DNA of 64,000 bases from a virus (IMGVR_UViG_3300035698_004130:1-64000), one strand, 5' to 3'. Counted from the stretch's first letter, positions 1,809 through 27,273 are shown. Notes: generated from the letters alone by a model not told the origin. A program made the numbers and translations.

Positions 1809-1885
1809 GACCACGTAACCCAATTGGCAGAGGTAAGAGGCTTAAAACCTCTTCAGTGTGGGTTCGACCCCCACCGTGGTTACCA
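1809..1885 (+). tRNA. tRNA-Leu(TAA), short variable arm
   Basis: cloverleaf: GACCACG/CGTGGTT, AGAGG-CTTAAAA-CCTCT, TTCGA loop, 3' CCA. Confidence 0.9.
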
Positions 1886-1904
1886 CTAACAACAGAACAA
1901 TATT

Positions 1905-2153
1905 ATGAACATCGAGCTAAAAAATATCACCCCTATCATTACCCGTAAGGATCTAAAGCCTGGGGCAGTGTATTCTATCTTAAAAGGCTCTGATAGTAGA
2001 TTCATGGTGATTGATATGAATTGCATGAGGATTAACCCAGGAGTGAGCATTGCTACTCACGTTAGTATTGATCTTGCAACTCACAAACTTGTGCATAGCG
2101 TTAACCCTGAGATGGAAGTTATCTTTCATGGGAATAGTAAGTTCACATGGTAA
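1905..2153 (+). CDS. small beta-rich protein, paralog family A
   Basis: ITRKDLKPGAVY motif shared with neighbouring ORFs. Confidence 0.7.
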   Translation: MNIELKNITPIITRKDLKPGAVYSILKGSDSRFMVIDMNCMRINPGVSIATHVSIDLATHKLVHSVNPEMEVIFHGNSKFTW

Positions 2154-2342
2154 ACATTAGTGCCGACTTCTGGCCCGGATATAAGCTTACCTAAGATAGT
2201 GGTAATGAGAAGGCTATCAAGGTCTTAGAAGCTTTGAAGCATAAGTGGGCATCCACAACAGATACAAACACTCAAACCCTTACCCGAAAGCTGCTACACA
2301 AAGACATTGAATTGATTATCAGTGTCCTTAAAGAGAATTAAT

Positions 2343-2591
2343 ATGAAGATCTCAATTACTCCACCAAACCTTACTCGTGCTGACCTAAATCCTGGAACAC
2401 TATTCTCTCACTATAATGGAGGTGAAGTCTGGCTAGCAGTTGAGAAGAACTCCATTCTCTTTGATGGTGAGTTTATGAGTAGTGGAAACAAGTTTGGTTG
2501 TGTGTCTCTTTCCACTGGGAAACTATGCCACTCACGGGGAGCTGATAAGGTTATCAACCTAGGGACTATTTCCCTTTCCCAGAAAGTTTAA
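2343..2591 (+). CDS. small beta-rich protein, paralog family A
   Basis: LTRADLNPGTLF motif; ATG 2343 preferred. Confidence 0.7.
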   Translation: MKISITPPNLTRADLNPGTLFSHYNGGEVWLAVEKNSILFDGEFMSSGNKFGCVSLSTGKLCHSRGADKVINLGTISLSQKV

Positions 2592-2599
2592 CAATATTC

Positions 2600-2676
2600 T
2601 GCCCTCTAGTGTAATCTGGTTAGCACATCAGACTTTGATTCTGGTAGTCTGAGTTCAAATCTCAGGGGGGCAACCA
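2600..2676 (+). tRNA. tRNA-Gln(TTG)
   Basis: TGCCCTC/GGGGGCA, TCAGA-CTTTGAT-TCTGG, CCA. Confidence 0.93.
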
Positions 2677-2698
2677 TTTACCGCCAACAGATAGACTA

Positions 2699-2953
2699 AT
2701 GCTTACGAAGATTGAAAAAGTAGATATTACCACTCCCCTTCACGAAGTTGAAGCTGGTATAATTGTTACCCTGGCCTCACAAGGGGGGGAATTCCTCACC
2801 ATTACCCAGGATTGTGACACACAAGCTATGCTCGATGCCTCAGGGACTACAGATACACTTGTTATCCTGAATATTAGGTATAGCGAGATCCAAACTATGC
2901 TTAGGGACAGTAAGGCAACTATTATTGGTAAGCTGACCTATGGGGTTCTATAA
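2699..2953 (+). CDS. small protein, probable paralog family A
   Basis: PLHEVEAGIIV; similar length and C-terminus (KATIIGKL). Confidence 0.65.
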   Translation: MLTKIEKVDITTPLHEVEAGIIVTLASQGGEFLTITQDCDTQAMLDASGTTDTLVILNIRYSEIQTMLRDSKATIIGKLTYGVL

Positions 2954-2957
2954 TACT

Positions 2958-3218
2958 ATGCATGTTTTACAAGTAAACAAGTCCGCTGCTCCAAAGCTCC
3001 TTACTGCCCAAAGTGTTCCAACAGGAATGTTCTTTCATATTCCGGAGGAATGCCATGGAAATGCCGACCAAGTATACCTGAAGACCGGCACACTTTCCTT
3101 TGTGTGCTTTAGTAAGTTCCATGAGCGTCCAAGGGTTGATAGTGGTTACTCCTGTAGGACTGACGAGTGTGTGGTCCTTGTTCCCACTGAAAACGTAAAG
3201 ATTGAGTTCTCCCTGTAA
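2958..3218 (+). CDS. small protein, probable paralog family A
   Basis: LTAQSVPTGMFF motif. Confidence 0.65.
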   Translation: MHVLQVNKSAAPKLLTAQSVPTGMFFHIPEECHGNADQVYLKTGTLSFVCFSKFHERPRVDSGYSCRTDECVVLVPTENVKIEFSL

Positions 3219-3360
3219 TGGAAACTGAAAATGCTCAAGAGGGTGTTAAGTTTCACCACATCCTTCTATACATCGTAGTTCCCCTAGTTCTTGTGTTAGC
3301 TGTTGATGCGGTTGTTAGTTATTACAACTATGTTGGCCAAGGCTTAATCACTTACTAACA

Positions 3361-3576
3361 ATGAAATACCTTCTATCTTTGTCTATCCTCCTAATGGGAG
3401 CCTGTGCGCCCTCCAAGGAGTCTCACATCTTACCTACGGTTGTTGAAGATCCTTGGGTCCACATTGCAGGAGTGCCAAAGATGGGCTTGAACACGCTTAA
3501 GATTGATGAGGGGACCATATACCTGTTCCAATTTGATTATGGAACTTGCATTACATTTGTTCCAAGTAAGAAGTGA
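3361..3576 (+). CDS. small lipoprotein
   Basis: MKYLLSLSILLMGAC signal peptide with lipobox. Confidence 0.65.
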   Translation: MKYLLSLSILLMGACAPSKESHILPTVVEDPWVHIAGVPKMGLNTLKIDEGTIYLFQFDYGTCITFVPSKK

Positions 3577-3797
3577 TGAAATACATTGAAGCAGAAGTAG
3601 AGATCACCTTTCGCAAGAAGGTTTTCATTGCTCGTGCAAATTGGGATAAGCGAGCAGAGGATATGGTTAGAGAGAAGGCATCCCAAATCGTTTTTGATAA
3701 GTTTGAATCGGTTAAGATCCTAGGCTACAAAAGAGCCGATTCTTTAGTAGAGCCTGGGTTGACAGGCCATATTAATTCGGTAGAATCCAGAGTATGA
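3576..3797 (+). CDS. hypothetical protein
   Basis: ORF track; TGATG coupling. Confidence 0.6.
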   Translation: MKYIEAEVEITFRKKVFIARANWDKRAEDMVREKASQIVFDKFESVKILGYKRADSLVEPGLTGHINSVESRV

Positions 3798-3976
3798 ACC
3801 ACCAGCGCATCAAAGACCTCATTACCAAGCTAGAGAGCAGCGGCATCTGCAAGGAAGGTAGAGATACCATTGCCAGCATCCTAGTGGAATAAACATACCT
3901 TCGTCCAAGCGAAGTAAAACTAGGTGTTAGGCTTGGAGCGTCCAAAAGGAAATTCTTAACTTTTGGGGTCACATTT

Positions 3977-4053
3977 GCATCCTTAGCTCAGTTGGATAGA
4001 GCAACGGGTTTCTAACCCGTAGGTCGTAGGTTCAAGTCCTACAGGGTGTGCCA
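3977..4053 (+). tRNA. tRNA-Arg(TCT)
   Basis: GCATCCT/AGGGTGT, ACGGG-TTTCTAA-CCCGT, CCA. Confidence 0.95.
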
Positions 4054-4073
4054 TTTTTTGCTTGAGATAAGTT

Positions 4074-4436
4074 ATGAAAACAGTTGAAATTAATCGTGCT
4101 AAGTGGGCCAGAGGTAAGATCAACGGTGATCCTAGCTTACTGAATGAGGATGGTAACATGTGTTGCCTAGGGTTTGCTTGCAAACAACTACTTGGGTTAA
4201 CAGACAATCAAATTAGACATATTGGGGAACCTCATGAAGCTATTAATGGGACATTTAATTGTGATTATACAGTGTTCACTAACTTTGAGGAAGAGAGAAG
4301 CCAACATTATGATAACGACTTCGCATTAACTGCAATGAAAATCAATGATAGCACCAGTATAGAAGATTCTCTGAGAGAGACAAACCTTATTAAGCTATTC
4401 AGCGACAATGGCCTAGAACTTACCTTTGAAGACTAA
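4074..4436 (+). CDS. conserved phage protein (CCLG motif family)
   Basis: MCCLGFAC...INDS; similar to 45559..45891. Confidence 0.75.
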   Translation: MKTVEINRAKWARGKINGDPSLLNEDGNMCCLGFACKQLLGLTDNQIRHIGEPHEAINGTFNCDYTVFTNFEEERSQHYDNDFALTAMKINDSTSIEDSLRETNLIKLFSDNGLELTFED

Positions 4437-4437
4437 T

Positions 4438-4692
4438 ATGAAAATTAACGTAAAGAACATTACTGGCCCACCGTTGTATCGAGTCGAGCTTGAAATGACG
4501 CAAGAGGAGATTAACTTTTTCAAGTGTGTCGTTGGATCAGTCTCCGGGGATCATAGGGGTCCAAGGCAAGTCACTGAGGCTATTTACCGGGCGCTTAGTG
4601 AGGCTGGAGCGGAGAGCACAGTGCTGTTTGAAAACAACTTGTCTGCTCCTGATAATTGGGATGCTTTCCATGAAAAGATGAAGGATGCTTAA
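4438..4692 (+). CDS. hypothetical protein, tandem duplicate B1
   Basis: CVVGSVSGDHRGPR...APDNW. Confidence 0.75.
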   Translation: MKINVKNITGPPLYRVELEMTQEEINFFKCVVGSVSGDHRGPRQVTEAIYRALSEAGAESTVLFENNLSAPDNWDAFHEKMKDA

Positions 4693-4951
4693 TATGACAA
4701 TTACAACTAAGACAGTCAAAACTCCGCAACATAGTATTACCATTGAGTTGAGCCAGAGAGAAGCAGACTTCCTAAGGTGTATTGTGGGTAGCATTACAGG
4801 TAGCTGCGATGGGCCTAGAGGGTTCTCTGATGAGATATACGTTGCCCTTGGTAATGTCAGTGATACTGCGTGTGTCTTGTTTGATGATACGCTAAAGGCT
4901 CCCGATTCATGGGAAGAATTCCAAAGCCGTGTTAAGGCTAGGGTTGTATAA
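4685..4951 (+). CDS. hypothetical protein, tandem duplicate B2
   Basis: CIVGSITGSCDGPR...APDSW. Confidence 0.75.
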   Translation: MLNMTITTKTVKTPQHSITIELSQREADFLRCIVGSITGSCDGPRGFSDEIYVALGNVSDTACVLFDDTLKAPDSWEEFQSRVKARVV

Positions 4952-5207
4952 TATGTTAATCACAGTAGAAACTACGGAACCAATGTTTGATCTAACTCTC
5001 TCCCTTAGTATTGGGGAAGCTGAAGCCCTTCGAACCATGGTTGTCCAGTATAGTGATGGATAGCAGTCTGTTTGGGAAAGTGCTGTTCACAATATTCCTT
5101 GTTGTGGTATCAGTGTGGCTCTATTGGGAAATGGAGTTTGATAAGTAGTTTTGTTGGTTGTAGTTTACCTTTTCTGCATAATATTACTCATTTTCCTATA
5201 TTTCGAG

Positions 5208-5235
5208 TTGAAAAAGTGGATTACTAAGCTATAAT
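5208..5235 (+). promoter_or_regulatory. sigma70-like promoter for main tRNA/ncRNA cluster
   Basis: TTGAAA-16 nt-TATAAT upstream of tRNA-Met. Confidence 0.6.
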
Positions 5236-5253
5236 CACTACATAACTGAACAA

Positions 5254-5331
5254 AGCGAGATGGTGTAGGTTGGCCTAGCACGTCGGTCTCATAAGCCGAA
5301 GCCACAGGTTCGAATCCTGTTCACGCTACCA
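5254..5331 (+). tRNA. tRNA-Met(CAT), initiator-like anticodon arm
   Basis: TCGGT-CTCATAA-GCCGA, T arm ACAGG TTCGAAT CCTGT, CCA. Confidence 0.88.
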
Positions 5332-5416
5332 TCAGAAATCACAGTTAGTCGTGTGGGCCTTTAAAAGAAGGTATTCGCTGGGATGATGACCCCTTGACAA
5401 TTCAATTTTTTACAAC

Positions 5417-5519
5417 GCTAACCTATTGGTGCTTTTTCAACATCGCGCTAGTAATAGTGTGTAGAGCCTTGAGGTTGGTTAAACACTTGCCAATATAGAC
5501 TCCACATCAATAGGTTAGC
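5417..5519 (+). ncRNA. putative structured ncRNA
   Basis: GCTAACCTATTGGTG pairs with CATCAATAGGTTAGC; internal GTAA-tetraloop hairpin. Confidence 0.5.
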
Positions 5520-5529
5520 ACATTTTTTT

Positions 5530-5601
5530 GGAAGTCTAGCATAATTTGGTTAAATGCAGTCGCTAAAACGAGTATGGTAGGTTCGATTCCTACTGCTTCC
5601 T
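5530..5601 (+). pseudogene. degenerate tRNA-like element
   Basis: D and T arms intact; anticodon arm collapsed (TCG-CTAAAA-CGA); no CCA. Confidence 0.6.
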
Positions 5602-5674
5602 GAAGTTTAACAGAACTTCAACTCTGTAAGGTTTAAACGCTGCTTGCTTCCTTTCAAAAAGCTGTGGAAACTTT

Positions 5675-5750
5675 CAGAAATTAGTGTAGTCTGGTAACAT
5701 GCAAGCTTTGGGAGTTTGTGTCCTCAGTTCAAATCTGAGATTTCTGACCA
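5675..5750 (+). tRNA. tRNA-Pro(TGG)
   Basis: CAGAAAT/ATTTCTG, CAAGC-TTTGGGA-GTTTG, CCA. Confidence 0.92.
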
Positions 5751-5817
5751 TAAACCGGGAAAGCCTCCGGTTCAAAATAACATAGGCTTGACGAGGGGGA
5801 CAGAGTGCTCCCACCAT

Positions 5818-5891
5818 GCATTTCTCGTATATTGGTATTACATTTGGCTTCCAATCAAAGGAACAGTGTTCGATTCACTGGAGATGCTCCA
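5818..5891 (+). tRNA. tRNA-Gly(TCC)
   Basis: GCATTTC/GAGATGC, TTTGG-CTTCCAA-TCAAA, U73, CCA. Confidence 0.9.
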
Positions 5892-6083
5892 ATGTCACCT
5901 AGTAACGCGACTATAAACTTAGTTACTACCAGTTTGTAAGGGGGCTTCTGGTATACCAAAAACGCATCCACCATACTCATCTTCTCGTGGCTGAGTGTCC
6001 CAAAGCACATGATTGCAAATATGGCCTATGATCTTACTCACAGTAGTTGTCGGTAAGGACCCAGAGATAGGCAATTGACTCGT

Positions 6084-6189
6084 GTTGTGAGGGACTGCAC
6101 ACATCCTATCATCCCTCAACTTTTCATTCGGGGCCTCTATGGCAATGCGAATAATCCTGCCCCAGATAGGATTAAAGCAGTCCTACAAT
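6084..6189 (+). ncRNA. putative structured ncRNA (long interrupted hairpin)
   Basis: nested pairings GGGACTGC/GCAGTCCT, ATCCTATC/GATAGGAT, GGGGC/GCCCC. Confidence 0.5.
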
Positions 6190-6223
6190 AACTATGTTTG
6201 ACAGACCGGAGAGACGGTCATTA

Positions 6224-6296
6224 GGGGTCGCATGTCCCAAGGCGGCGAGAAACCTTTGCAAGGTATCTGAGAAGAGTTCGATTCTCTTCGACTCCA
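6224..6296 (+). tRNA. tRNA-Ala(TGC), no encoded CCA
   Basis: GGGGTCG/CGACTCC with G3.U70; loop TTTGCAA. Confidence 0.8.
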
Positions 6297-6305
6297 TTAC
6301 TTTTC

Positions 6306-6457
6306 GGGCTTATAGCTTAATGGTTAGAGCTAACTTACAGAAATGTAAGGTGCATTAGAGGTAGTTTAGTAACACTGATCGATAAAGATACGGAACGATA
6401 CCTAATGTTAGGGCTAACAAGGCCCTGATCTGAGTTCGAATCTAAGTGAGTCCACCA
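6306..6457 (+). ncRNA. tRNA-like RNA with ~79-nt structured insertion after the D arm
   Basis: GGGCTTA/TGAGTCC-A-CCA, D arm, insertion, AGGGC/GCCCT arm, T arm. Confidence 0.7.
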
Positions 6458-6499
6458 ACATTCATGAATTAGGCAAGATGGAGTAATTACCTATCTTCG

Positions 6500-6570
6500 G
6501 TGTAGGGAAGTGTAACGGATGCACGGCCTGTCTAGCAGGTAAGAGCGGTTCGACTCCGCACCTACTATCC
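6500..6570 (+). ncRNA. degenerate tRNA-like element with CTA at anticodon position
   Basis: D arm GTGT/GCAC, GCCT-GTCTAGC-AGGT, T loop TTCGACT; weak acceptor stem. Confidence 0.5.
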
Positions 6571-6695
6571 TTTTAATACATCTCTCTCATGCAACAGAGG
6601 TTTAAACATGCATGATGGTTCGGATCCCATGGGTATCAATCTCCAATGTATCGCAGCTTCTTTCATTGGGGAGGGCCAAACGTCCACCATATTTT

Positions 6696-6773
6696 GTATC
6701 CTTAGCTCAGTCTAGCTAGAGCGTTCGGTTGAAGCCCTTAAGGTCGTTGGTGCGAATCCAACAGGATACACCA
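6696..6773 (+). tRNA. tRNA-Phe(GAA), poorly paired anticodon stem
   Basis: GTATCCT/AGGATAC, loop TTGAAGC, CCA. Confidence 0.75.
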
Positions 6774-7281
6774 TTATTGAAGTCGTGAATAATCACGTAA
6801 CAACCTTTGAAATAGTGGTGTAAGCCCACTAACTATTGAGGATTTAACATTCCAATCTTAGCGGATTGGTTAGTTCATAAGATTTTCATTCTGAAGGTTG
6901 TCGGTTCGAGTCCGTCACGGAGTATCATTTTTTTAGTTAGTTAATGACAGATAGCAAAACTTACATTGGTGATGGAGCTTACGTTGAGGTTGAACATGGT
7001 AGGGTAAAACTTACTACAAACAACGGATACGAAGATACCAACACCATTCTCATGGAGGGGCCAGTAGTGGAATCCTTTATTCGATGGGTCCAGAAGATTA
7101 AGAGTAGTATACAATGACGAAATATGTTTTAGGATTCATGCTCCTCCTTATTGTGGGCATCCCAGGTTGCTATGTGTTCAATTGGGCTTCCAAAGCATCA
7201 ACTGTTGTTACAGAAGAGATGACCGTAGAAGAGAAGTAGTTGGGTCTGGGCGACAGTTCGAAAGAGTATGTCACCCCATTT

Positions 7282-7355
7282 GGGTTGTTAGTTCAATGGT
7301 AGAACGGCAGGTTGTTAACCTGCGAACGAAGGTTCGATTCCTTCACTTCCCTCCA
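7282..7355 (+). tRNA. tRNA-Asn(GTT)
   Basis: GCAGG-TTGTTAA-CCTGC, CCA. Confidence 0.88.
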
Positions 7356-7370
7356 CTTTAAGCTCTAAAT

Positions 7371-7445
7371 AGGTCTATAATTCAACGGCTAGAATATGCG
7401 ACTTTTAATCGCTCAATCTGGGTTCGATTCCCAGTGGACCTACCA
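7371..7445 (+). tRNA. tRNA-Lys(TTT)
   Basis: AGGTCTA/TGGACCT, loop CTTTTAA, CCA. Confidence 0.92.
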
Positions 7446-7456
7446 CTTATACACTG

Positions 7457-7530
7457 GCTTCTTTAGCTCAATGATAGAGCCTTCCCCTTGTAAGGGAGAG
7501 ACGAGAGTTTGATTCTCTCAGGAAGCTCCA
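7457..7530 (+). tRNA. tRNA-Thr(TGT)
   Basis: GCTTCTT/AGGAAGC, TTCCC-CTTGTAA-GGGAG, CCA. Confidence 0.9.
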
Positions 7531-7568
7531 CTATCTGTTCTTTGAATTAAACGTATTTTTTTGTGTGT

Positions 7569-7658
7569 GGCAGTGTGGCGAAATTGGCTATACGCGCTAG
7601 CCTTAGAAGCTAGTGAGGGTAATTCCTCGTGCAGGTTCGAGTCCTGTCACTGCTACCA
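7569..7658 (+). tRNA. tRNA-Leu(TAG), long variable arm
   Basis: GGCAGTG/CACTGCT, CTAGC-CTTAGAA-GCTAG, CCA. Confidence 0.95.
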
Positions 7659-7664
7659 TTTGTT

Positions 7665-8408
7665 ATGCTTAGTAAATTACTAATCGCGCTTCTATTTGTT
7701 GGAACACTCGTAGCCCAACAACCACAATCCTTTACTGTAGCATCAGTCCAAGATGCACCTTTTGTTAACTGCACTTTGCTTGGTGATACCACCAGTGAAC
7801 TTGCTCGTTGCACAGGGTGTGGGGCTGGTACTCCTGAACAAAAGGATGATAGTGGAACTTTTCAAGATATGACTAAGAACTCTGATGGGACTTTCACTGC
7901 TGTTGGTATAATTGGATGGGAAAGCACTGCTGGAGGGGGTGCTCATCTTTACCTCAACAGAATCACTATTACCACAAAGGATGGTGCGTGTGAAGTAGAG
8001 GATGAAGGCTGTAAAACAAAGACACAATGTGAAGCAGTGCATGAACTTAACTTCATGATGTTTACTTCTACTCAGTTAGAAGCAATGGAATCACTCATTG
8101 TTACAATTTCGGGACAAACTGTTGTTGTTGGACTGAATGCCATTCCTACTTGGAATGGTGCATGGTGGGTATCTAACTATGTTATGGGTAGTGCAGTTGG
8201 GGGTGATTGTGGAGTTACTTACGCTGCCACTGTGTATGACCCTACCGCAATGGACCCTCATACAGCTAGCCATCAATCAATACCCCCTATAACGGGTGAT
8301 GTAGCTTTAGAGTTTCAATTTGAGTGTGTAGAATGCACTTATGAAGCTTATGACCAACCTACACACTCTCTACCTCTTGAGATGTGGTATCAAGCTAATT
8401 TTCACTAA
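7665..8408 (+). CDS. secreted Cys-rich protein
   Basis: start at 7665 gives signal peptide MLSKLLIALLFVGTLVA; several Cys including CxxC. Confidence 0.75.
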   Translation: MLSKLLIALLFVGTLVAQQPQSFTVASVQDAPFVNCTLLGDTTSELARCTGCGAGTPEQKDDSGTFQDMTKNSDGTFTAVGIIGWESTAGGGAHLYLNRITITTKDGACEVEDEGCKTKTQCEAVHELNFMMFTSTQLEAMESLIVTISGQTVVVGLNAIPTWNGAWWVSNYVMGSAVGGDCGVTYAATVYDPTAMDPHTASHQSIPPITGDVALEFQFECVECTYEAYDQPTHSLPLEMWYQANFH

Positions 8409-8438
8409 ATCTTCTGCCTAGCTTCGGCTAGGTAGTTC

Positions 8439-8515
8439 AGGCATCTAGCTTAATTGGATAGAGCGGCAGATTACGGATCCGTCAGATATAGGTTCAACTC
8501 CTATGGTGCCTACCA
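8439..8515 (+). tRNA. tRNA-Arg(ACG)
   Basis: AGGCATC/GGTGCCT, loop TTACGGA, CCA. Confidence 0.88.
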
Positions 8516-9063
8516 CATGTTAAACGAAGATTGGATGATGATTGAAGATATCACAATGATGGAAGTATTGTTCTTCTGTGGTTGTGACATGCCAGAGTAA
8601 TTATGACAAAGTTAAACGATAACGTAGGGGAAATTACCCTTAAAGAGTTTTATGCCATCACATCAATCATGAACCTAGTGAACTGTCACCCAGAAATTGT
8701 GGAAGTTTTTGAGCAAAAGGCCATGAAGACTTTGGTGTGTATGGTAGACAGGATTGACGGAGTATGACTAAGAAAGAAGCTTTAATAATGGTAGAGTATG
8801 ATGGTTGGACTATCGACTGTGATGGAAAGACTTATCGTTACAACCATAATGATGAAGATTACGGAGGTAAGGTCTTGGCAAAATTGCTTAAAGACCTTGG
8901 ACTCAAAGTAAAAGTAGAAGAGGCTTACTAACACAAGAAGGATTGCATCTCAGACTTAGTTGGAAAACACTTTTGAGGGGTTGTAATCGCAGACACTACT
9001 AATAGAAAGTGTTCCACCTTTGGCTCAGTGTATTGAGGATCTAAAAAGGATAGAAGCAAACAA

Positions 9064-9139
9064 GGACGATTAGCTCAGTTGGTAGAGCACCTCTTTTACA
9101 AGGAGGAAGTCGTAGGTTCGAGTCCTATATCGTCTACCA
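9064..9139 (+). tRNA. tRNA-Val(TAC)
   Basis: GGACGAT/ATCGTCT, CCTCT-TTTACAA-GGAGG, CCA. Confidence 0.94.
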
Positions 9140-9301
9140 TAACTACATATACATGTGGAGCTTACAAAAGAAGAGAGCCTGCGAATGGCTATTGACATCT
9201 TTTACTCAATTGAAAACTTTGAGAGATACGAGAACGACTTCCCAATAATCATACTGTTTCTAGTTGATTATTTGAGTTGGAGTTCTAAAGAACCAGAATA
9301 A

Positions 9302-9333
9302 TCCTTGGTAGCTCAGTTGGTTAGAGCACTTGC
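9302..9333 (+). pseudogene. isolated tRNA 5' half
   Basis: TCCTTGG TA GCTCAGTTGGTTAGAGC A CTTGC with no anticodon loop or T arm following. Confidence 0.65.
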
Positions 9334-9374
9334 AGGAATTATACCCTATTGTAACTAGAGGAGAAATTCTTAGC

Positions 9375-9698
9375 ATGATTCAAGCACAAACAAATAAAAC
9401 CCCCGATCCCACACCTACTATGCCATATTACGAAGTTCACATCACATTCCTAGGACCACTAAAAGGAACTCCACCAAGACCTTGGAAATACTCCCGGATT
9501 GACGGTGACCCTGTTCTTGGTAAAGGTATCAAAGATTACCTTACTAGACAGTATAAGGGAGGGACAGAAAAGATGCTCATGATTAACGACATTGAAATAG
9601 CTAGTAGGAGGCTTAAGAGTAGAGGCCATACTGTCCTACGAGAGAAGATTGATGATGTTATCTATGATACGAAGATTCTCCCTGAAAGCTTTTTTTAG
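9375..9698 (+). CDS. conserved phage hypothetical protein
   Basis: ORF track; YYEVHITF...REKIDDVIYDTK; start uncertain. Confidence 0.65.
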   Translation: MIQAQTNKTPDPTPTMPYYEVHITFLGPLKGTPPRPWKYSRIDGDPVLGKGIKDYLTRQYKGGTEKMLMINDIEIASRRLKSRGHTVLREKIDDVIYDTKILPESFF

Positions 9699-9718
9699 CT
9701 CTAACCCAATATAGTTCT

Positions 9719-9943
9719 ATGAGAAACGGAAACCACAAAGAAGGATGTGATGAGCAAACATTCACTTACTCAGGCTCAGAGTATAACAGAGTAAAAGTGT
9801 GTAGATGTGGTGCCGAGGATCATGCTCCCGACTTTACCCCAGAGCTTATTGCTAAGATGGAGAAGTCCAGACAGAATACCCTAAAGATCATCCAAGAGAT
9901 GGAAGACGAGAAAGTGAAAAATTTCAATAACTCTCACCTGTAA
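9719..9943 (+). CDS. small hypothetical protein (possible Zn binding)
   Basis: H..C...CRC. Confidence 0.55.
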   Translation: MRNGNHKEGCDEQTFTYSGSEYNRVKVCRCGAEDHAPDFTPELIAKMEKSRQNTLKIIQEMEDEKVKNFNNSHL

Positions 9944-9949
9944 ACATAT

Positions 9950-10037
9950 GCTAGTGTATCCAAGTCCGGTTCAAAGGATGGGGATTGTAAATCCTCCGGC
10001 TCTGCCTTCGTAGGTTAGAATCCTACCGCTAGCACCA
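9950..10037 (+). tRNA. tRNA-Tyr(GTA)
   Basis: GCTAGTG/CGCTAGC, GGGGA-TTGTAAA-TCCTC, long variable arm, CCA. Confidence 0.92.
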
Positions 10038-20959: not shown

Positions 20960-21178
20960 TTAATTCTTCTCCACTATTGACTCCATGAACTCCTGAAAAG
21001 CTTGTTCCTTAGTTAGCCCTGCATTAATCTGGGCCTTTGTCCTTCGGAATCTCTTCCCAGTCTTCTTCTTGTAGTCGCCTGCATCCATGAATGGAAAATT
21101 CATGTTGCTATTGTCACGCAACTCATTCTTTAGAGCATCACTCACTAGAGTGGAAAGTCTATCTTCTACACTACCCAT
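20960..21178 (-). CDS. small basic hypothetical protein
   Basis: YKKKTGKRFRRTK. Confidence 0.65.
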   Translation of the reverse strand: MGSVEDRLSTLVSDALKNELRDNSNMNFPFMDAGDYKKKTGKRFRRTKAQINAGLTKEQAFQEFMESIVEKN

Positions 21179-22181
21179 TCAACAATTCCTCCTTAACACC
21201 TAGCATCTCCCTAATTATAGCCGTATCCTTGTTGGAGAAATCTAACAAAACCTCAGTAAAATCATCTTTTTTGAACTTAGTGTCCCCAATAGACAACCTA
21301 CCTGAATCCGACTTGGTGATGTAGCCATCTTCAACTAACATTGGAGCAAGTCCGTAATAAGGATCCAATCCCTTATCAAACAATACTCGGAACTCACATT
21401 CTTGGAAGGGTAGTCCAACCTTGTTCTTCTTGGCTCTGATCTTTCCCACGATACCCATAGGCTTCTTGTTAGCGTCCTTAATAACGTCGCTGGTCTTATT
21501 AGAGACCGTCTTGAGATCTACCGACAGATAAAATTCTAGAGCCCTTCCGCCGCTTGCTGTGGTGTTCGGGTCACCATACATCACGCCAATCTTGGTCCTA
21601 ATCTGGTTGATAACCACAATCGTGGCCTTATTCTTCTTCAGGTCGTGATTGATCTTTCTAAGAAGACTACCAAATACAATAGCTCTACGAGCACCATCTG
21701 TTGGGGAGATGTCTCCAATATTATCTCTATTCATTTCCTCTCGTGTTGGCAGGACAGATACGGAATCAATCACCTGGATAATAGGGGTCTCTTTGTCTAG
21801 CTCCCGAATGTCCTCGATGGTCTTCTTGATGCTCTCAAAGGCATCCTCAAGGCACCGGGAGTTGGTGTAGAGTAGAGTGTCTGGGTTGATGCCTAACTTG
21901 CGACCGAACTCTCGGGAGTAAGTATTTTCTGTGTCATCCAGCTTGGCATAACAACCTGCGTGCTGTGCAGCTTGTAGTATAGTGGTTGCAAACAGTGTCT
22001 TACCTGTTGAACTGTCTCCTTGCAATTGAACTATTCCACCGATAGGAAGGCCAGCGGCATAGTCTCCTGAGATGATTCTGTTGAGAGCGTGACACCCTGT
22101 GGAAATGAATTTCCAGTCTTCTAACTGATCTAGAGTAAGGTTTTTATTGCCTTTCAACTTGTCTAATACGTCTTGGTTCAT
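21171..22181 (-). CDS. uvsX: UvsX/RecA-like recombinase
   Basis: GDSSTGKT Walker A, VIDSVS, INQIR.KIGVMYGDP.TT.SGGRAL.FY, KNKV. Confidence 0.93.
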   Translation of the reverse strand: MNQDVLDKLKGNKNLTLDQLEDWKFISTGCHALNRIISGDYAAGLPIGGIVQLQGDSSTGKTLFATTILQAAQHAGCYAKLDDTENTYSREFGRKLGINPDTLLYTNSRCLEDAFESIKKTIEDIRELDKETPIIQVIDSVSVLPTREEMNRDNIGDISPTDGARRAIVFGSLLRKINHDLKKNKATIVVINQIRTKIGVMYGDPNTTASGGRALEFYLSVDLKTVSNKTSDVIKDANKKPMGIVGKIRAKKNKVGLPFQECEFRVLFDKGLDPYYGLAPMLVEDGYITKSDSGRLSIGDTKFKKDDFTEVLLDFSNKDTAIIREMLGVKEELLNG

Positions 22182-22203
22182 ACCCAGGTATTATAGTCGA
22201 TAC

Positions 22204-22240
22204 AAAAAAACAGAGTAAGCTTTTTAGGGCTTACTCTGTT
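22204..22240 (-). terminator. intrinsic terminator closing the ROT-TerD/ncRNA transcript
   Basis: minus strand AACAGAGTAAGC-loop-GCTTACTCTGTT followed by T run. Confidence 0.85.
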
Positions 22241-22281
22241 AGGTTTGAGCGGTAAGACTCAGACAGCTTTAGACTGTAAAT

Positions 22282-22398
22282 AAGGGAAATTGTAACCAGA
22301 TGATTTTTATTGGTAAGCCTCGGGGGAATTGAACCCCAACGTGTTCTGGCCTGGATACCAAGGCTTGGGTGTTAGAAGGAACTGGTTTCATGGCCCTT
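22282..22398 (-). ncRNA. Y-RNA-like unit 4 with CCA-ended tRNA minihelix
   Basis: AAGGGCCATGAAACCAGTTCCTTCTA...TCTGGTTACAATTTCCCTT enclosing AAGCCTTG..GGGGTTCAATTCCCC CGAGGCTT ACCA. Confidence 0.75.
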
Positions 22399-22403
22399 GA
22401 ATA

Positions 22404-22607
22404 TTAGTTCAACCAAGCATTTATTCTACGGTTTAGAATTGTAAGATACTCTTTCATAACCCCTAGTTGGGTTGTTAGGTTGTTTTGTTCTGTCTCTAGT
22501 AGGCTCAAAAAAACTCCATTAGTTGGATTGATAAAAGCCTCTAGGTTAGCGACCTTTAAAGCAAGGTCTGCTCGTTCATCGGCAACTCGTCGTTGATAAG
22601 GTAACAT
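22404..22607 (-). CDS. small coiled-coil phage protein (crAss001_48-like)
   Basis: YQRRVADERADL..K..NLEAFI...QL.VM..Y..IL.RRI pattern. Confidence 0.7.
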   Translation of the reverse strand: MLPYQRRVADERADLALKVANLEAFINPTNGVFLSLLETEQNNLTTQLGVMKEYLTILNRRINAWLN

Positions 22608-22617
22608 GGGAAAAATG

Positions 22618-22683
22618 TATCCCTCGCTTTCTGACAGTGAAAAAAATGAACCAAGGTTGGTTCGTCAGCGATAGCGAGGGATA
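22618..22683 (-). ncRNA. structured RNA element inside the ncRNA array
   Basis: TATCCCTCGCT/AGCGAGGGATA, CTGAC/GTCAG, GAACCAA/TTGGTTC. Confidence 0.55.
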
Positions 22684-22715
22684 GAAGATCTTAAAAGCTA
22701 AGATCGATGTAAGTT

Positions 22716-22857
22716 GAGGAGATTATAGTAGGTAGTTTTAAGGTCAGATGCTCTACCGCTGAGCTACAAGCAACACTGTTAGTTGGTTGCGAGGCAGGAA
22801 TTGAACCTGCGACCGTCTGATTTTTATTTAATAGAAGGAACCTACTTCTATGGCCTC
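22716..22857 (-). ncRNA. Y-RNA-like unit 3, YrlA-type circularly permuted tRNA mimic
   Basis: T arm (GCAGG TTCAATT CCTGC) precedes a loop-closed acceptor stem, then D arm (TAGCTCAGCGGTAGAGC); TCAGA/TCTGA joins the conserved basal stem. Confidence 0.85.
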
Positions 22858-22867
22858 GTTATGAGGT

Positions 22868-22947
22868 GAGGAGATTGGCATCAGTGTGTTGTCAAATCCA
22901 TATTTTGGTGCCCAAAGGGCGTAGAAGTAACTGATTGCCATAGCCTC
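22868..22947 (-). ncRNA. Y-RNA-like unit 2
   Basis: GAGGCTATGGCAATCAGTTACTTCTA...ACTGATGCCAATCTCCTC. Confidence 0.78.
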
Positions 22948-22958
22948 GTAATAAGGTA

Positions 22959-23026
22959 GCGGAGATTTCTAGGTCTAAGTTTTTAATAATTGTTAAAGTT
23001 TTAGAAGGAAGACCTAGAATGGCCGC
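22959..23026 (-). ncRNA. Y-RNA-like unit 1 (minimal)
   Basis: GCGGCCATTCTAGGTCTTCCTTCTA...AGACCTAGAAATCTCCGC. Confidence 0.78.
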
Positions 23027-23032
23027 AGTATT

Positions 23033-25135
23033 TTAAGCGAGATATTCCGAAAGGATCTCAGTTGTATCCGATGGCTTGATACCTTCTGTCAGAGAGAAGA
23101 TGGTATCAGCCTCCAGAGGATCCTCAACATACTCCGTCCCCCGCACATTAGCGTGCATTACGAATAGATCGTAGAGGGTAGGTTTGTTGTCAAGGTTCAC
23201 TGAGCCTCGCACAATATCTAGTGTCGTCGCACGATTTGTGATCGTGTTATTTGGTATACGTCTGTTGGAGTTTCTAAAGATGTCTGTGCCACCCTCAAGA
23301 TCCATCCAGATTGCTTGTCGTGCTTGCATGTCAAAGATAACAGGAACAGCCCTTGAACTACCTTGGGTTAGATTAACCTTTTGGTCAACATACTTAGCGT
23401 TATACTTGTCACTTGAATCAGGCATGTCTCGGGTCATCCAACCTGCGTAGCAGATTTCGTGATCCTTAAAGCTAGGTCCACAATACACATATACTTGCAT
23501 TGCAACATATCTGTATCCGGCCTTCAAAGCCTTAGTCATATCAATGTCAATGAACTCTGCTGCACCATCAGGAGCATTCGTAATATCACCGGAGTGACAA
23601 GAGATTGTGCCATCCCTCAAGTTTGTGTAAGCAACGTCGGACTTGTGGTTAAACTCAGCATCCAAGAAGGAAGCACTAAGATCGATATCTCTGCCCTTCC
23701 AGTAGATGAACAGGCGTAGGGTATTCTTGTCCGTTAGGTTGAATCTGGTGCCTCTTGCGACAGTCTCTAGGCTTTCCGATGCGCTTCTCAGAGAGAGAGG
23801 GATCGGACAACCTTCAAGATCGTTACTCAAGAATACCTTTCCAAGGGACTCCAGCTTAGAGAACCTATTTTGCAGGGAGGCTTGGATCGTATCCATAACC
23901 TTATCTACAATGGAAGGATTCAAAGTTGGAAGCTTTGTCTTTAAGAGGATTGCCTTAGCAGCACTACCCTTCGGGAATACAAGTCTTTCAGCAGGTCCAG
24001 TTGCACGAGTTCTAAAGTGCCCGAACAGTTGCATCAATACTCTCGTATCAATTTCATCTGCTACAGAGGCAAAGTTCTCTAGGATACCCTTACCAATACG
24101 CACATTAGACTTCCGTAGAAGGTTATCCAACTTTCTTGCGAACACTCCAGGTCTCTTCTTTAGAAGAGTAGAAGCTTCACCATAGTTGCCGGAGGTAATA
24201 AATCTTTCAACATTCGCCTCGTAGGAGAGATGCTTGTAGTCCTTACTGCGTAGTCGAGAAACAATTGCATTTAGGTTCTTTGCGTAAGCGTATTCACCTG
24301 TATGCAAAGAGTGTGCTAAACGAATCCACTTACCCCGATGGCGGAAGATATCGTCATCTCGTGCTATCACGTTTAGACGGTAAACAACTGCCTTTCTGAA
24401 CTTACGACCGAAGCTCTTAAACTTAGTGTTAGTTGCAAGGGAAATATCTCCACCGGATAGATGGGTGCAAACTCTTAGAACATCGGTTGCAGTCTTTAGT
24501 GCAGCCATGCCCAGGGAAGGACGGTCACTATCCAAACACTCTCCAACGAAGAATGCCATGTTCTCTTTGAACGGGATTGCGGGAGGGAGAACCTGCATTA
24601 GCTGGTTGTCCTCGTAGTTGTTAAAGAGATAGGTTAGAACCTTCTTGTCATAGTCGGTGATCGAAGCATTAGATGCTAGGATTTGACTAAGGGTAAGCAG
24701 CACATCTTCTTCTTTCCCTAGACCGATTTCTCGGAACTTAGAGTTTTCGAATTGTGGTGCTTGCATGTTACCTTGATGGTAATCGGGTTGCCAAGCTCCA
24801 CCCGACCAATAGTGCATCAAAGCATTACCGTAAAGCCTCATCGCTCCCATTTCCATCACTTGGGATGGGAAACCGGGATACATTGGAGTGTAGGTAACAT
24901 CTGCACCTACAACTTTCTTGAGGTTCGTCAGGGTTTGACGAAACACAGTGTTGAAGCGATTTTCCGTTAAAGTTGTCAACTGCTCCATTGCCTCAGGTGA
25001 GAGGATAAAGCCCAATGACATCACTTCCGCTTGGAGAACCATACCTCTTTGATCGAAGGCTTGGCGTCTGGTTCCTTGACCGGATGGAAGCAACAGGAGC
25101 CGCTTCTTATTAAGTAGTATTGATTGCTTGTTCAT
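23033..25135 (-). CDS. ROT/TROVE-like helical repeats plus C-terminal TerD-like domain (RING-less relative of the Prok-RING_4 architecture)
   Basis: PMYPGFPSQV, KTATDVLR, RPGVFARKLD; TerD-like DIDLSA..HSGDITNAPDGAAEFIDID; start 25135 follows a TATAAT box. Confidence 0.75.
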   Translation of the reverse strand: MNKQSILLNKKRLLLLPSGQGTRRQAFDQRGMVLQAEVMSLGFILSPEAMEQLTTLTENRFNTVFRQTLTNLKKVVGADVTYTPMYPGFPSQVMEMGAMRLYGNALMHYWSGGAWQPDYHQGNMQAPQFENSKFREIGLGKEEDVLLTLSQILASNASITDYDKKVLTYLFNNYEDNQLMQVLPPAIPFKENMAFFVGECLDSDRPSLGMAALKTATDVLRVCTHLSGGDISLATNTKFKSFGRKFRKAVVYRLNVIARDDDIFRHRGKWIRLAHSLHTGEYAYAKNLNAIVSRLRSKDYKHLSYEANVERFITSGNYGEASTLLKKRPGVFARKLDNLLRKSNVRIGKGILENFASVADEIDTRVLMQLFGHFRTRATGPAERLVFPKGSAAKAILLKTKLPTLNPSIVDKVMDTIQASLQNRFSKLESLGKVFLSNDLEGCPIPLSLRSASESLETVARGTRFNLTDKNTLRLFIYWKGRDIDLSASFLDAEFNHKSDVAYTNLRDGTISCHSGDITNAPDGAAEFIDIDMTKALKAGYRYVAMQVYVYCGPSFKDHEICYAGWMTRDMPDSSDKYNAKYVDQKVNLTQGSSRAVPVIFDMQARQAIWMDLEGGTDIFRNSNRRIPNNTITNRATTLDIVRGSVNLDNKPTLYDLFVMHANVRGTEYVEDPLEADTIFSLTEGIKPSDTTEILSEYLA

Positions 25136-25190
25136 CTGTATTTCGTCCTCGTGAGCTACCATTATAGCTAAGGTAGCCCGAATCTGAACG

Positions 25191-25463
25191 CTAATCTTCC
25201 GAGATTTCGTCGTTTTCTTCTGCCTCAATATCCTGCACTCGCGTATAAAGAGCCATAGCTTTCACAGATAGGTGAATGAACTGTTCCAAAGTGGCTGATA
25301 ACTGATGTGCAAACTCTCCTTGAGTATACCCATCCCTTCCTTCATCCTCAATTTGGGTATTACTTTCAATAGCATCAGCGATTACGAGTTGCGTGTGCGC
25401 GGTTTGAAGGCAATCCACGATTGCACCATACATTTCAGAATTACTTTTCATTTTAGTTACCAT
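25191..25463 (-). CDS. hypothetical protein
   Basis: ORF track. Confidence 0.55.
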   Translation of the reverse strand: MVTKMKSNSEMYGAIVDCLQTAHTQLVIADAIESNTQIEDEGRDGYTQGEFAHQLSATLEQFIHLSVKAMALYTRVQDIEAEENDEISED

Positions 25464-25740
25464 CGTTTTCAATATCGTTGTTTGTAATTTCTTTCACAGG
25501 ATCATAGGTTCTTAGGAAGATGTCGGGATTACAGGGATATCTTTCCCCTGAAACTCCTGTGATGATCCAATCACCTGGAGTCACATGGTATTGCCCTTCT
25601 AGTGTTTGAATACTATACCCCGTTGGTGAGGTTTCATCAATGAACACACCTTGGGGAAAATCCTTGGTGTAGACATCTTTTGGGTCAAACGGAAACTGAT
25701 CCGCGTCAATAACAACAGGCTTCTTACGAAACTTAGGCAT
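25453..25740 (-). CDS. conserved phage protein (PGDW/PGDYG-like)
   Basis: KFRKKPVVIDA..TLEG..PGDWIITGVSGERYPCNPDIF. Confidence 0.8.
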   Translation of the reverse strand: MPKFRKKPVVIDADQFPFDPKDVYTKDFPQGVFIDETSPTGYSIQTLEGQYHVTPGDWIITGVSGERYPCNPDIFLRTYDPVKEITNNDIENDGN

Positions 25741-26056
25741 TTCTTACTCCACCACCCTCAACAAACCCATTCGGATATCTTTCTTGTAGCTTCAACACGT
25801 TAAAGTCCATACATCCTTCAAACTCAAGTCCGAATAGATTACACATTGCTTGCACGTAGTATAATACATCACCTAGCTCTTTCTCTAGATCACAGAGATC
25901 CAAAGGTTTACCATGGTAGAGGTGTTTCTTAATAAGCTCCACAACTTCCCCAGACTCTCCAGCAATGCCGAGAGCCCAGTTACTGGCTTTCTGCTCTGCT
26001 GTTAGTCCGGGATTTTCTGTCCTGGCAACCGCTTCCGCGAAATCCTTAAACTTCAT
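25733..26056 (-). CDS. MazG-like nucleotide pyrophosphohydrolase
   Basis: LGIAGESGEVVELIKK, KELGDVLYY, N..KL.ERYP.GF. Confidence 0.88.
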   Translation of the reverse strand: MKFKDFAEAVARTENPGLTAEQKASNWALGIAGESGEVVELIKKHLYHGKPLDLCDLEKELGDVLYYVQAMCNLFGLEFEGCMDFNVLKLQERYPNGFVEGGGVRNA

Positions 26057-27129
26057 TAGGAAAAAGTTCCTCTGATTCTCCGTGTGGTTCTCTTTGCAAT
26101 CTTTCTGACCGCTCTACGTTGAGTTGCGTTTCGAAGCAACACCTTAGAGTTGGGCATCAAATTACGGTTCCAAGAGGTTGACCGGATGTAGATCGTGTAG
26201 TCAGTTGTATTCGCTGGGTTAAGAGCAATTGACGATCCTTCTGGCAGACGTAGTAGACTTCTAGCATTCTCACCAGTATACAAAGCTCCATCCCCATTGG
26301 ATTGGATGATGATATCCTTGTAATCCTGAATCGTCTCACTCTTAGTCAACTGGTAGAAGTTATCACCAACTTGGAAAGTATAACCCTCTCCTTGGATGAA
26401 GTCTCTGATCGATTGCTTACTAAGCACGGAGAGAGCCTTGAACTGATCCGTAACTTCGTCCAGGTTAGCAGCGACCGTAGACTGGGCGAGGTTATTCAGG
26501 TCAGGCGTGAAGTAACTGAAAGAACGAGTCTTGCCAGCAGCATAACGGGTAAACAAGCCAGTGTTTGAACTTCGGATGTTTTGTGTCATCACCTTAGTCC
26601 CATACTTCGTAGCTTCCCACTCAGAGATACACTCCAAGGGAATACCATAGTTACGAGAGGTGCTGGACTTATGTCCGGGTGGAACACACATAGCAAAGGT
26701 CCACACATCAGTAGCGATCGAACCGACAACCATATCCTTGATTGTTTGAGCGTTGTATTTCCTAGAAGAGTTTTCATCACCATCGGTAACAACCAACAGG
26801 AGATACATTCCAGTCTTTTCCTTAAGTGTGTTAATCATGCTACCAATAGCATCATTAAGGGCAGTTCCCCCACTTGGACGGAAGGACTCGGAATCAATAT
26901 CCTCAGTATCAGCAATAGGGATATTCTTTACAAACTCCTTAATCTCATAAGAGAAAGTTGAAATCGAAATAGTGGTTTCAATTCCATTTGCAGCAGCCTC
27001 ATTTCGGAAACTTTCCAGTTGGCCGTTGAGGGAGGTAATTGCAGTTTCCTTGATGTAACTCATGGAACCTGATTCATCTAGGACCACTCCAATGTGAAGT
27101 GGCAGAATTTTCTTCTTAAATTTTAGCAT
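26056..27129 (-). CDS. von Willebrand factor A domain protein
   Basis: MIDAS DESGSM, GGTALNDAI, VTDGDENSS; likely start MLKFKK. Confidence 0.85.
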   Translation of the reverse strand: MLKFKKKILPLHIGVVLDESGSMSYIKETAITSLNGQLESFRNEAAANGIETTISISTFSYEIKEFVKNIPIADTEDIDSESFRPSGGTALNDAIGSMINTLKEKTGMYLLLVVTDGDENSSRKYNAQTIKDMVVGSIATDVWTFAMCVPPGHKSSTSRNYGIPLECISEWEATKYGTKVMTQNIRSSNTGLFTRYAAGKTRSFSYFTPDLNNLAQSTVAANLDEVTDQFKALSVLSKQSIRDFIQGEGYTFQVGDNFYQLTKSETIQDYKDIIIQSNGDGALYTGENARSLLRLPEGSSIALNPANTTDYTIYIRSTSWNRNLMPNSKVLLRNATQRRAVRKIAKRTTRRIRGTFS

Positions 27130-27273
27130 AATTTTGTTTTCGTAGTTTATTAAAAGATGGACAGGGGCGAACCTGCCTGGATTGTTTTGGAGGTAGATCT
27201 TAACCATCTCACAGTCCTGTTTGCGGGACATGGAGACATTATAGCCATCACAGATCCTCTTTAAACTCACGAA

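Follow-up and report, generated by a model that had tools for sequence, protein, structure and literature searches.

This study concerns a minus-strand element at 22716 to 22857 of a 64,000-nucleotide stretch of viral DNA (IMGVR_UViG_3300035698_004130, positions 1-64000; hereafter the window). The element is the third of four tandem units, each made of a base-paired scaffold, the handle, and an insert that differs between units, the cargo. The array begins 6 nt past the stop, at 23033, of a gene on the same strand, the partner gene, whose 731-aa product was modelled as a Ro60-shaped helical ring with a TerD domain. The results showed that unit 3 holds a circularly permuted tRNA body without an anticodon, so that decoding is impossible. 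Coordinates of all features are collected in Table 1, in which the Tara relative is a contig from Tara Oceans that carries the same four-unit array.

Layout of unit 3 and its handle

The first-pass annotation of this locus had listed the elements of the tRNA-like core one after another on the minus strand, and all of them were present where it had placed them, with the one correction that the variable loop has five bases, not four. The acceptor-like stem, formed by CTCGCAAC and GTTGCTTG, has 8 positions with 6 pairs and 2 internal mismatches. The nucleotides of the tRNA elbow and core were all kept, namely U8, A14, G15-C48, the D-loop G18-G19, T54-T55(Psi55)-C56, A58 and G53-C61, and because they are kept the cargo should fold into the tRNA L-shape. 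The anticodon loop is absent, as had been claimed and as the bases show directly; in its place, the open end of the anticodon-like stem leads to about 45 nt of handle. The first-pass annotation had this stem open into the basal helix, but the two are separated by an asymmetric internal loop, whose 5' strand has 19 nt, made up of TCCTTCTA and 11 nt more, and whose 3' strand has 10 nt.

The minimum free energy (MFE) fold of the 77-nt core consisted of the four expected helices, and that of the whole unit contained the outer helix, the inner stem, the T arm, the acceptor hairpin and the D arm. The outermost bases of the unit, 22857 and 22716, are the ends of the outer GAGG/CCTC pairing. The inner handle stem was read by hand, because its internal loop misled ungapped stem matching, which gave a false 3' strand. 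On neither strand is 22608-23032 overlapped by an open reading frame (ORF) of at least 40 aa. No tRNA was called at unit 3 by ARAGORN or by the Rfam tRNA model (RF00005), which found 15 and 13 tRNAs, respectively, elsewhere in the window. A search of 21000-25000 with all Rfam families gave no match of a tRNA or tmRNA family at unit 3 at E up to 10; weak matches nearby to RT-6, mir-368, Plastid-ycf2 and GHRLOS were judged to be due to chance.

The flanks of the core share a scaffold in unrelated phages, which consists of GG-CYR, a 9-10-nt stem strand, (A/T)TCCTTCTA, the cargo, the complement of the stem and (A/C)TT(T/A/C)CC. The head motif was defined as GG-CYR, 9-10 nt of stem and N-TCCTTCY, and the tail motif as (A/C)TT(T/A/C)CC. 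Unit 3 fits both, with GG-CCA, an 11-nt strand, TCCTTCTA, the complement and ATCTCC, and it lies within about 1.5 kb of the partner gene on the same strand. The handle occurs only four times in the present genome (heads at 23024, 22945, 22855 and 22395), all around the partner gene. Across 89 sources with homologues of the partner gene, the head motif was found 280 times on the gene strand in comparison to 6 times on the opposite strand, and 76 of the 89 sources have at least one gene-strand head. Of the 225 distinct heads, 48% had within 230 nt a stem complement that matched without gaps at 88% or more and led into the tail motif, in comparison to 0.9% for shuffled stems; the tail motif played no part in finding the complement. 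The 102 distinct handle stems have a mean pairwise identity of 0.40 while the complement is kept, and the covariation is therefore extensive. Handle units range from about 50 to 135 nt across the family, and the long ones hold the tRNA-like core. No family in Rfam 15 matches the handle. Its near-invariant single strand UCCUUCUA (22832-22839 on the minus strand; loci L009-L088) has no obvious pairing partner within the unit, and it could serve as a protein contact or be threaded through the ring.

Table 1. Positions in the window of the partner gene, the array units and the parts of unit 3, in minus-strand order
Feature	Position	Strand	Basis and remarks
Partner gene, 731-aa ORF; predicted Ro60-like helical ring and TerD domain	23033..25228	minus	AlphaFold2 model and fold matches
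Unit 1: handle and short AT-rich cargo	22959..23026	minus	head at 23024; kept in Tara relative
Unit 2: handle variant TACTTCTA; cargo GCCC-TTT-GGGC, then ACCA	22868..22947	minus	head at 22945
Unit 3, whole: handle and permuted tRNA-like cargo	22716..22857	minus	142 nt; direct reading, MFE fold, Tara relative
Outer handle helix, 5' strand GAGG	22854..22857	minus	pairs with CCTC at 22716-22719; sequence; GG...CC also flank handles of relatives
Handle internal loop, 5' side CCA	22851..22853	minus	family consensus CYA; sequence and relatives
Inner handle stem, 5' strand TAGAAGTAGGT	22840..22850	minus	11 nt; 9 pairs with 22724-22733 around a GA/A internal loop
Conserved strand TCCTTCTA at handle-cargo junction	22832..22839	minus	belongs to head motif; visible in nearly all relatives
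Permuted tRNA-like core	22744..22820	minus	77 nt; R2 57.3 bits, R1 64.4 bits, Rfam YrlA 31.8 bits, MFE fold
Anticodon-like stem, 3' strand TCAGA	22816-22820	minus	sequence
Variable loop CGGTC	22811-22815	minus	five bases; sequence
T arm GCAGG-TTCAATT-CCTGC	22794-22810	minus	sequence
Acceptor-like hairpin CTCGCAA, 13-nt loop starting CCA, TTGCTTG	22767-22793	minus	loop-closed; sequence
TA, corresponding to U8-A9	22765-22766	minus	sequence
D arm GCTC-AGCGGTA-GAGC	22750-22764	minus	sequence
A, corresponding to A26	22749	minus	sequence
Anticodon-like stem, 5' strand TCTGA	22744-22748	minus	sequence
3' spacer CCTTAAAACT, anticodon-like stem to handle	22734..22743	minus	10 nt; one base differs in Tara relative (CCTTAAAAAT)
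Inner handle stem, 3' strand ACCTACTATA	22724..22733	minus	sequence and MFE fold
Handle tail ATCT and CCTC	22716..22723	minus	family consensus (A/C)TT(T/A/C)CC; seen after stem complement in relatives
Terminator-like hairpin and T run past unit 3	22640..22663	minus	kept in Tara relative
Unit 4: handle; acceptor/T-arm minihelix cargo ending ACCA	22282..22398	minus	head at 22395; weak mascRNA-like match

The other units of the array show other pieces of a tRNA; both the microhelix of unit 2 and the acceptor/T minihelix of unit 4 end in ACCA. The unit 2 hairpin with its ACCA (22906-22920 on the minus strand) resembles an acceptor-end microhelix and is kept in the Tara relative with one loop change. 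The unit 4 minihelix (22311-22366 on the minus strand) lies past a small crAss001_48-like gene, and in it AAGCCTTGG pairs with CCGAGGCTT around a T arm GGGG-TTCAATT-CCCC before the ACCA; its mascRNA-like Rfam match scored 18.9 bits.

Relatives in other phages and comparison with YrlA

A covariance model, R2, was made from 24 elements of other phages with the window element left out. In the 64-kb window, R2 matched 22744-22820 on the minus strand with 57.3 bits (E 2e-16) in comparison to 27.5 bits for the runner-up, which lies at a junction of the tRNA gene cluster, and R1 scored the same positions at 64.4 bits. By R1, permuted cores of at least 53 bits occur in about 22 distinct viral loci, all on the strand of the partner homologue and either upstream or downstream of it. 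The R1 matches that overlap ARAGORN tRNAs are junctions of tandem tRNAs and never have a handle, and the core matches that overlap no tRNA are always inside a handle. The acceptor strands pair at 7 of 7 positions in 17 of about 20 elements, in comparison to about 3.7 of 7 for tRNA-tRNA junctions; since these elements were picked by T-arm and D-arm sequence only, the pairing is no artefact of selection. In alignment A2, 18 of the 21 pairs change on both sides.

The Tara Oceans contig has the same array beside a partner protein of 94% identity. Its unit 3, which scored 62.6 bits with R2, is identical to that of the window in the T arm, the D stem and the anticodon-like stem, and its acceptor arm is 13 nt shorter, with five clean pairs, a tetraloop and no CCA (CTTGC-ACCC-GCAAG). 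In the unit 3 handle stem, the A of the G.A mismatch is replaced by C, which makes a G-C pair. The handle stem of unit 2 differs by two compensatory double changes, one from C-G to A-T and the other from T-A to C-G. Such differences argue for selection on the helices and for a closed acceptor arm in this lineage.

Neither a megablast of 21000-26000 against phage records nor a scan of viral contigs with the single protein sequence returned a match. By tblastn, the partner protein was found in cultured phages of Rhodococcus, Rhodobacter, Ruegeria, Mycobacterium, Xanthomonas, Lactobacillus and Salicola, in which its gene often adjoins tRNA, tmRNA and nucleotidyl transferase genes, and an alignment-based scan of viral contigs yielded 80 further loci. 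In the flanks of the partner gene family, ARAGORN called 157 tRNAs in 48 of the 88 loci. In two phages of this set, Rhodobacter phage RcXuper (L003, 1303-1719) and Ruegeria phage RpAliso (L005, 1363-1651), permuted two-piece tmRNA genes that are unannotated in the records directly precede the handle RNAs and the Ro60-like/TerD gene. It was also observed that, in about 30 relatives, the bases 3' of the 5' strand of the anticodon stem often resemble the start of an anticodon loop, with a pyrimidine or A and then T, for example CTTTAAA or ATTAAAC. Such bases may be left over from an ancestral tRNA that was opened within the anticodon loop, or they could be due to AT-richness.

The permuted order and loop-closed acceptor arm are those of YrlA, a tRNA mimic that partners Rsr (PMC4201824; bioRxiv 10.1101/312249). 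The first-pass annotation had assigned this layout, with the T arm before the D arm, and had suggested a search with the Rfam YrlA model. The assignment was borne out, as the model (RF02553) matched 22722-22834 on the minus strand with 31.8 bits (E 3.5e-4 in the 4-kb search of 21000-25000), with the tRNA-like part aligned at high posterior probability and the outer stems poorly, although this score is below the gathering score of 69. The model also matched beside the homologous genes of three cultured phages, below threshold, with 42.3 and 34.7 bits in RpAliso, 40.7 bits in RcXuper and 26.4 bits in Rhodococcus phage Weasels2, and these matches cover model positions 23-86 only, which is the tRNA-like domain.

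Several features are shared with YrlA of bacteria and phages: (i) the order of T arm, loop-closed acceptor arm and D arm; (ii) halves of the anticodon stem that lead into a long protein-binding stem; (iii) a conserved D arm sequence and the elbow nucleotides; and (iv) a position next to a presumed ring-protein gene, often in multiple copies and near tRNA genes. Unlike in YrlA, the stem is a GG-CYA-stem-UCCUUCUA / AUYU-CC handle in place of GNCGAAN0-1G, the T stem covaries freely where that of YrlA is near-invariant, the acceptor stem of the family has 7 bp as in a real tRNA, and the partner has no recognisable TROVE sequence and no detected vWA. Thus, unit 3 has the permuted tRNA-like domain with its tertiary nucleotides, but it falls short of the gathering score, lacks the GNCGAAN0-1G stem and has no canonical Ro60 neighbour, and it is therefore not a member of the Rfam YrlA family. 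We regard it as YrlA-like in layout and probably in role.

The partner protein and its surroundings

The homologues of the partner protein have about 690-709 aa in comparison to the 731-aa ORF, and the true start may therefore be later than the start of the ORF. The only protein family matched was phrog_33734, of unknown function. There are at least 750 homologues of about 690 aa among the matches listed, for which the fullest annotation was 'TerD family protein', from one source. Pfam gave no family for the 731-aa protein at E up to 10, and no relevant family, TROVE (PF05731) included, for 57 aligned family members. The phage record (102.7 kb, 87% complete) contains no canonical TROVE, RtcB or CCA-adding enzyme.

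An AlphaFold2 model of the partner, built on the family alignment, reached a pLDDT of 86 and a pTM of 0.85. With this model, Foldseek returned TerD domains at E 2e-5 and the Deinococcus Rsr (2nvo) at E 1.6e-3 with a probability of 1.00. When it was compared with 48,161 PDB representatives, only five chains had a Z of at least 8, three of them Ro60 (Thermus phage phiLo, Xenopus and Deinococcus) and two TerD, in comparison to a Z of 6.5 for the next best match, which is helical. By VIA-align, the Ro60 matches were 2i91_A (Z 12.1 over 314 aa), 9l5y_B (Z 11.9 over 313 aa), 1yvp (Z 10.7-11.7, the highest for 1yvp_B at 11.7) and 2nvo (Z 10.6), and TerD matched residues ~500-675 with a Z of 13.2. No vWA match was listed for the whole model, in which residues 500-675 match TerD and the C-terminal 55 residues were not searched separately. 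By these fold matches, the predicted model has the HEAT-repeat ring fold of Ro60/TROVE, and we therefore describe the partner as a Ro60-shaped ring with a TerD domain, which in the model is related to Ro60 by fold and not detectably by sequence. This agrees with the earlier suggestion that the partner is no canonical Ro60.

The helical part of the model thus superposes over about 315 residues on the Ro60 rings (PDB 9L5Y, 1YVP, 2I91 and 2NVO), which are its sole strong helical matches in the PDB, and small structured RNAs flank its gene as they do in Ro60/Rsr systems. Unlike Ro60/Rsr, which joins TROVE to vWA, the partner has a TerD beta-sandwich, no detected vWA/MIDAS and an extra N-terminal helical region; it has no sequence similarity to Ro60 by Pfam, phmmer or family profile, and RtcB is missing from the present phage. 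A canonical TROVE+vWA Ro60 is known from Thermus phage phiLo, with Yrl1/Yrl2 and the CGAA motif (PMC12135203; PDB 9L5Y), and a survey of jumbo phages reported ROT/TROVE proteins with a tRNA-like partner in some of them (PMC7824862). No link between TerD and Ro60 or Y RNAs was found in the papers searched. ROT/TROVE modules are reportedly treated in the work of Burroughs and Aravind on RNA repair systems (NAR, 2016), which may bear on priority.

Some further features of the window were recorded. A stand-alone 404-aa protein with weak vWA matches (26056-27270 on the minus strand; PF00092, E 3.6e-4; phrog_26613) is encoded three genes upstream of the Ro60-like/TerD gene. The tRNA cluster at 1809-10037 on the plus strand comprises 15 ARAGORN calls, of which the 14 inspected encode their own 3' CCA; one call, at 5530-5601, has a 2-nt 'anticodon'. 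Weak R2 matches at 6262-6335 and 6890-6951, where no tRNA was called, may be unrecognised tRNA-like genes. Within the cluster, a match to the Pistol ribozyme (3899-3973 on the plus strand; 53.5 bits in comparison to a gathering score of 34.5) ends 3 nt before the tRNA-Arg(TCT) at 3977.

Interpretation and rival explanations

We consider it likely that unit 3 is a YrlA-like handle-and-cargo RNA that partners the Ro60-shaped TerD protein and displays a tRNA elbow as its cargo. The four small RNAs lie directly downstream of the Ro60-shaped/TerD gene on the same strand and would probably be co-transcribed with it. The handle, with its outer GG/CC helix, CYA/ATYT internal loop, covarying stem of about 10 bp and UCCUUCUA, most likely docks the RNA on the protein, in parallel to the docking of the conserved Y RNA stem on Ro60; from the synteny of array and gene we infer that unit 3 binds its partner. 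The cargo would show the tRNA elbow and would bind or sequester a tRNA-recognising factor beside the ring, as YrlA is thought to do with Rsr, acting either as a decoy or as a tether through which an enzyme is brought to the ring.

Several observations weigh against this interpretation. Unit 3 is unlisted at the gathering threshold of the YrlA model, of which the tRNA-like part alone aligns, and the Ro-binding motif GNCGAA is absent, with no CGAA on the minus strand in 22716-22857. The folding energies are only modestly better than those of shuffled sequences (z -1.1 and -2.0), and the acceptor-like stem has its two mismatches. In A2, the figure of 95.9% paired is inflated, because the assembling script required pairing. 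For the protein, neither phmmer with the single sequence nor a search with the family profile gave a sequence match in the PDB, Ro60 and TerD included, and the resemblance to Ro60 could therefore be convergent or very remote.

Among the alternatives, the one that survives best, to which we give a small chance, is that the precursor is opened at the acceptor loop by RNase P with 3' trimming, so that the handle is left with a nicked tRNA-like RNA in two pieces, whose 5' end would be genuine and whose 3' CCA would be free; such a product could be a substrate for a CCA-adding enzyme or an aminoacyl-tRNA synthetase. An opening of the RNase P type occurs in the YrlA of Mycobacterium smegmatis. The loop of unit 3 begins with CCA right after the 7-nt 3' strand of the acceptor, NCCA is found at the exact tRNA position in 7 of the 32 relatives in comparison to about 0.5 expected by chance (a subset that includes loops of 11-17 nt), the acceptor stems of the family have 7 bp like those of real tRNAs, and in RcXuper, RpAliso and Xoo-sp13 the homologous gene has neighbours that are annotated as nucleotidyl transferase or tRNA nucleotidyltransferase. 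However, the Tara relative closes a 5-bp arm with a tetraloop and has no CCA, most relatives have loops of 3-8 nt without CCA, unit 3 has no discriminator base before its CCA and has mismatches in the stem, and a CCA-adding enzyme is missing from the phage record. The claim of the first-pass annotation that there is no free CCA is thus likely rather than proven, as the closed arm of the Tara relative speaks for it and the CCA of the loop, with the NCCA of the seven relatives, against it; from the sequences compared, a closed decoy without a free CCA is the favoured form.

Less probable still is that the array is a cis-acting signal for the processing or stability of the upstream mRNA, through punctuation by RNase P/RNase Z or a block to 3' exonucleases. 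tRNA-like structures are known as processing signals, the array starts 6 nt past the stop codon, no promoter-like site separates it from the gene, and a terminator follows unit 3. In many relatives (L003, L005, L011, L013, L014, L017 and L027), however, the units are upstream of the gene, unit 4 here sits past another gene, and tandem units with different cargos in one conserved handle would be needless for a simple 3' block.

Maturation of a permuted gene into a tRNA that decodes, of the kind known from the red alga Cyanidioschyzon merolae, is very improbable for this element, and so is a two-piece tmRNA. As in those genes, the 3' part of the tRNA fold comes first and the 5' part second, and a removable loop joins the acceptor strands; unlike them, unit 3 has no anticodon loop, no bulge-helix-bulge junction, no tag reading frame and no call by ARAGORN, which detects permuted tmRNA. 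With neither that call nor a match to an Rfam tmRNA or tRNA family, tmRNA was ruled out. Least credible of all is that the element is functionless, being either a pair of decayed tRNA fragments or the junction of two adjoining tRNA genes: tandem tRNA junctions do give middling matches (20-48 bits with R1, 27.5 bits with R2), but the element recurs in about 22 distinct phage loci, in which it shows compensatory changes and never lies outside the handle. Separate decayed halves, which the first-pass annotation had named as what would refute it, were excluded as far as sequence evidence goes, as the halves pair in the acceptor and anticodon stems and no canonical tRNA overlaps them. A tRNA-tRNA junction was excluded by the lack of a handle and the poorer acceptor pairing at such junctions, and recent copying from a tRNA of this phage by the lack of close similarity to any of its 14 named tRNAs.

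A broader and more speculative idea, which we hold as possible but doubtful, is that the Ro60-shaped TerD protein and its handle RNAs make up a widespread, hitherto undescribed phage ribonucleoprotein that displays interchangeable tRNA pieces (the L-shape, the CCA minihelix and the CCA microhelix) as baits or adaptors, which sequester host defence enzymes that target tRNA or recruit tRNA processing or repair, thereby protecting translation. To our knowledge, Y RNAs with Ro60 are the sole known class of bacterial or viral RNA that tethers a ring-shaped RNA-binding protein to other factors. The element described here links the biology of Ro60 and Y RNAs to a much larger family of phage proteins with a different handle and modular cargos. 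Should the pairing be real, it would give a function to a common phage 'hypothetical protein' and would define a new family of structured RNAs that is absent from Rfam, and the cultured phages of Rhodobacter, Ruegeria and Rhodococcus that have the same pair would be a tractable system for the study of a tRNA elbow on a Ro-like particle.
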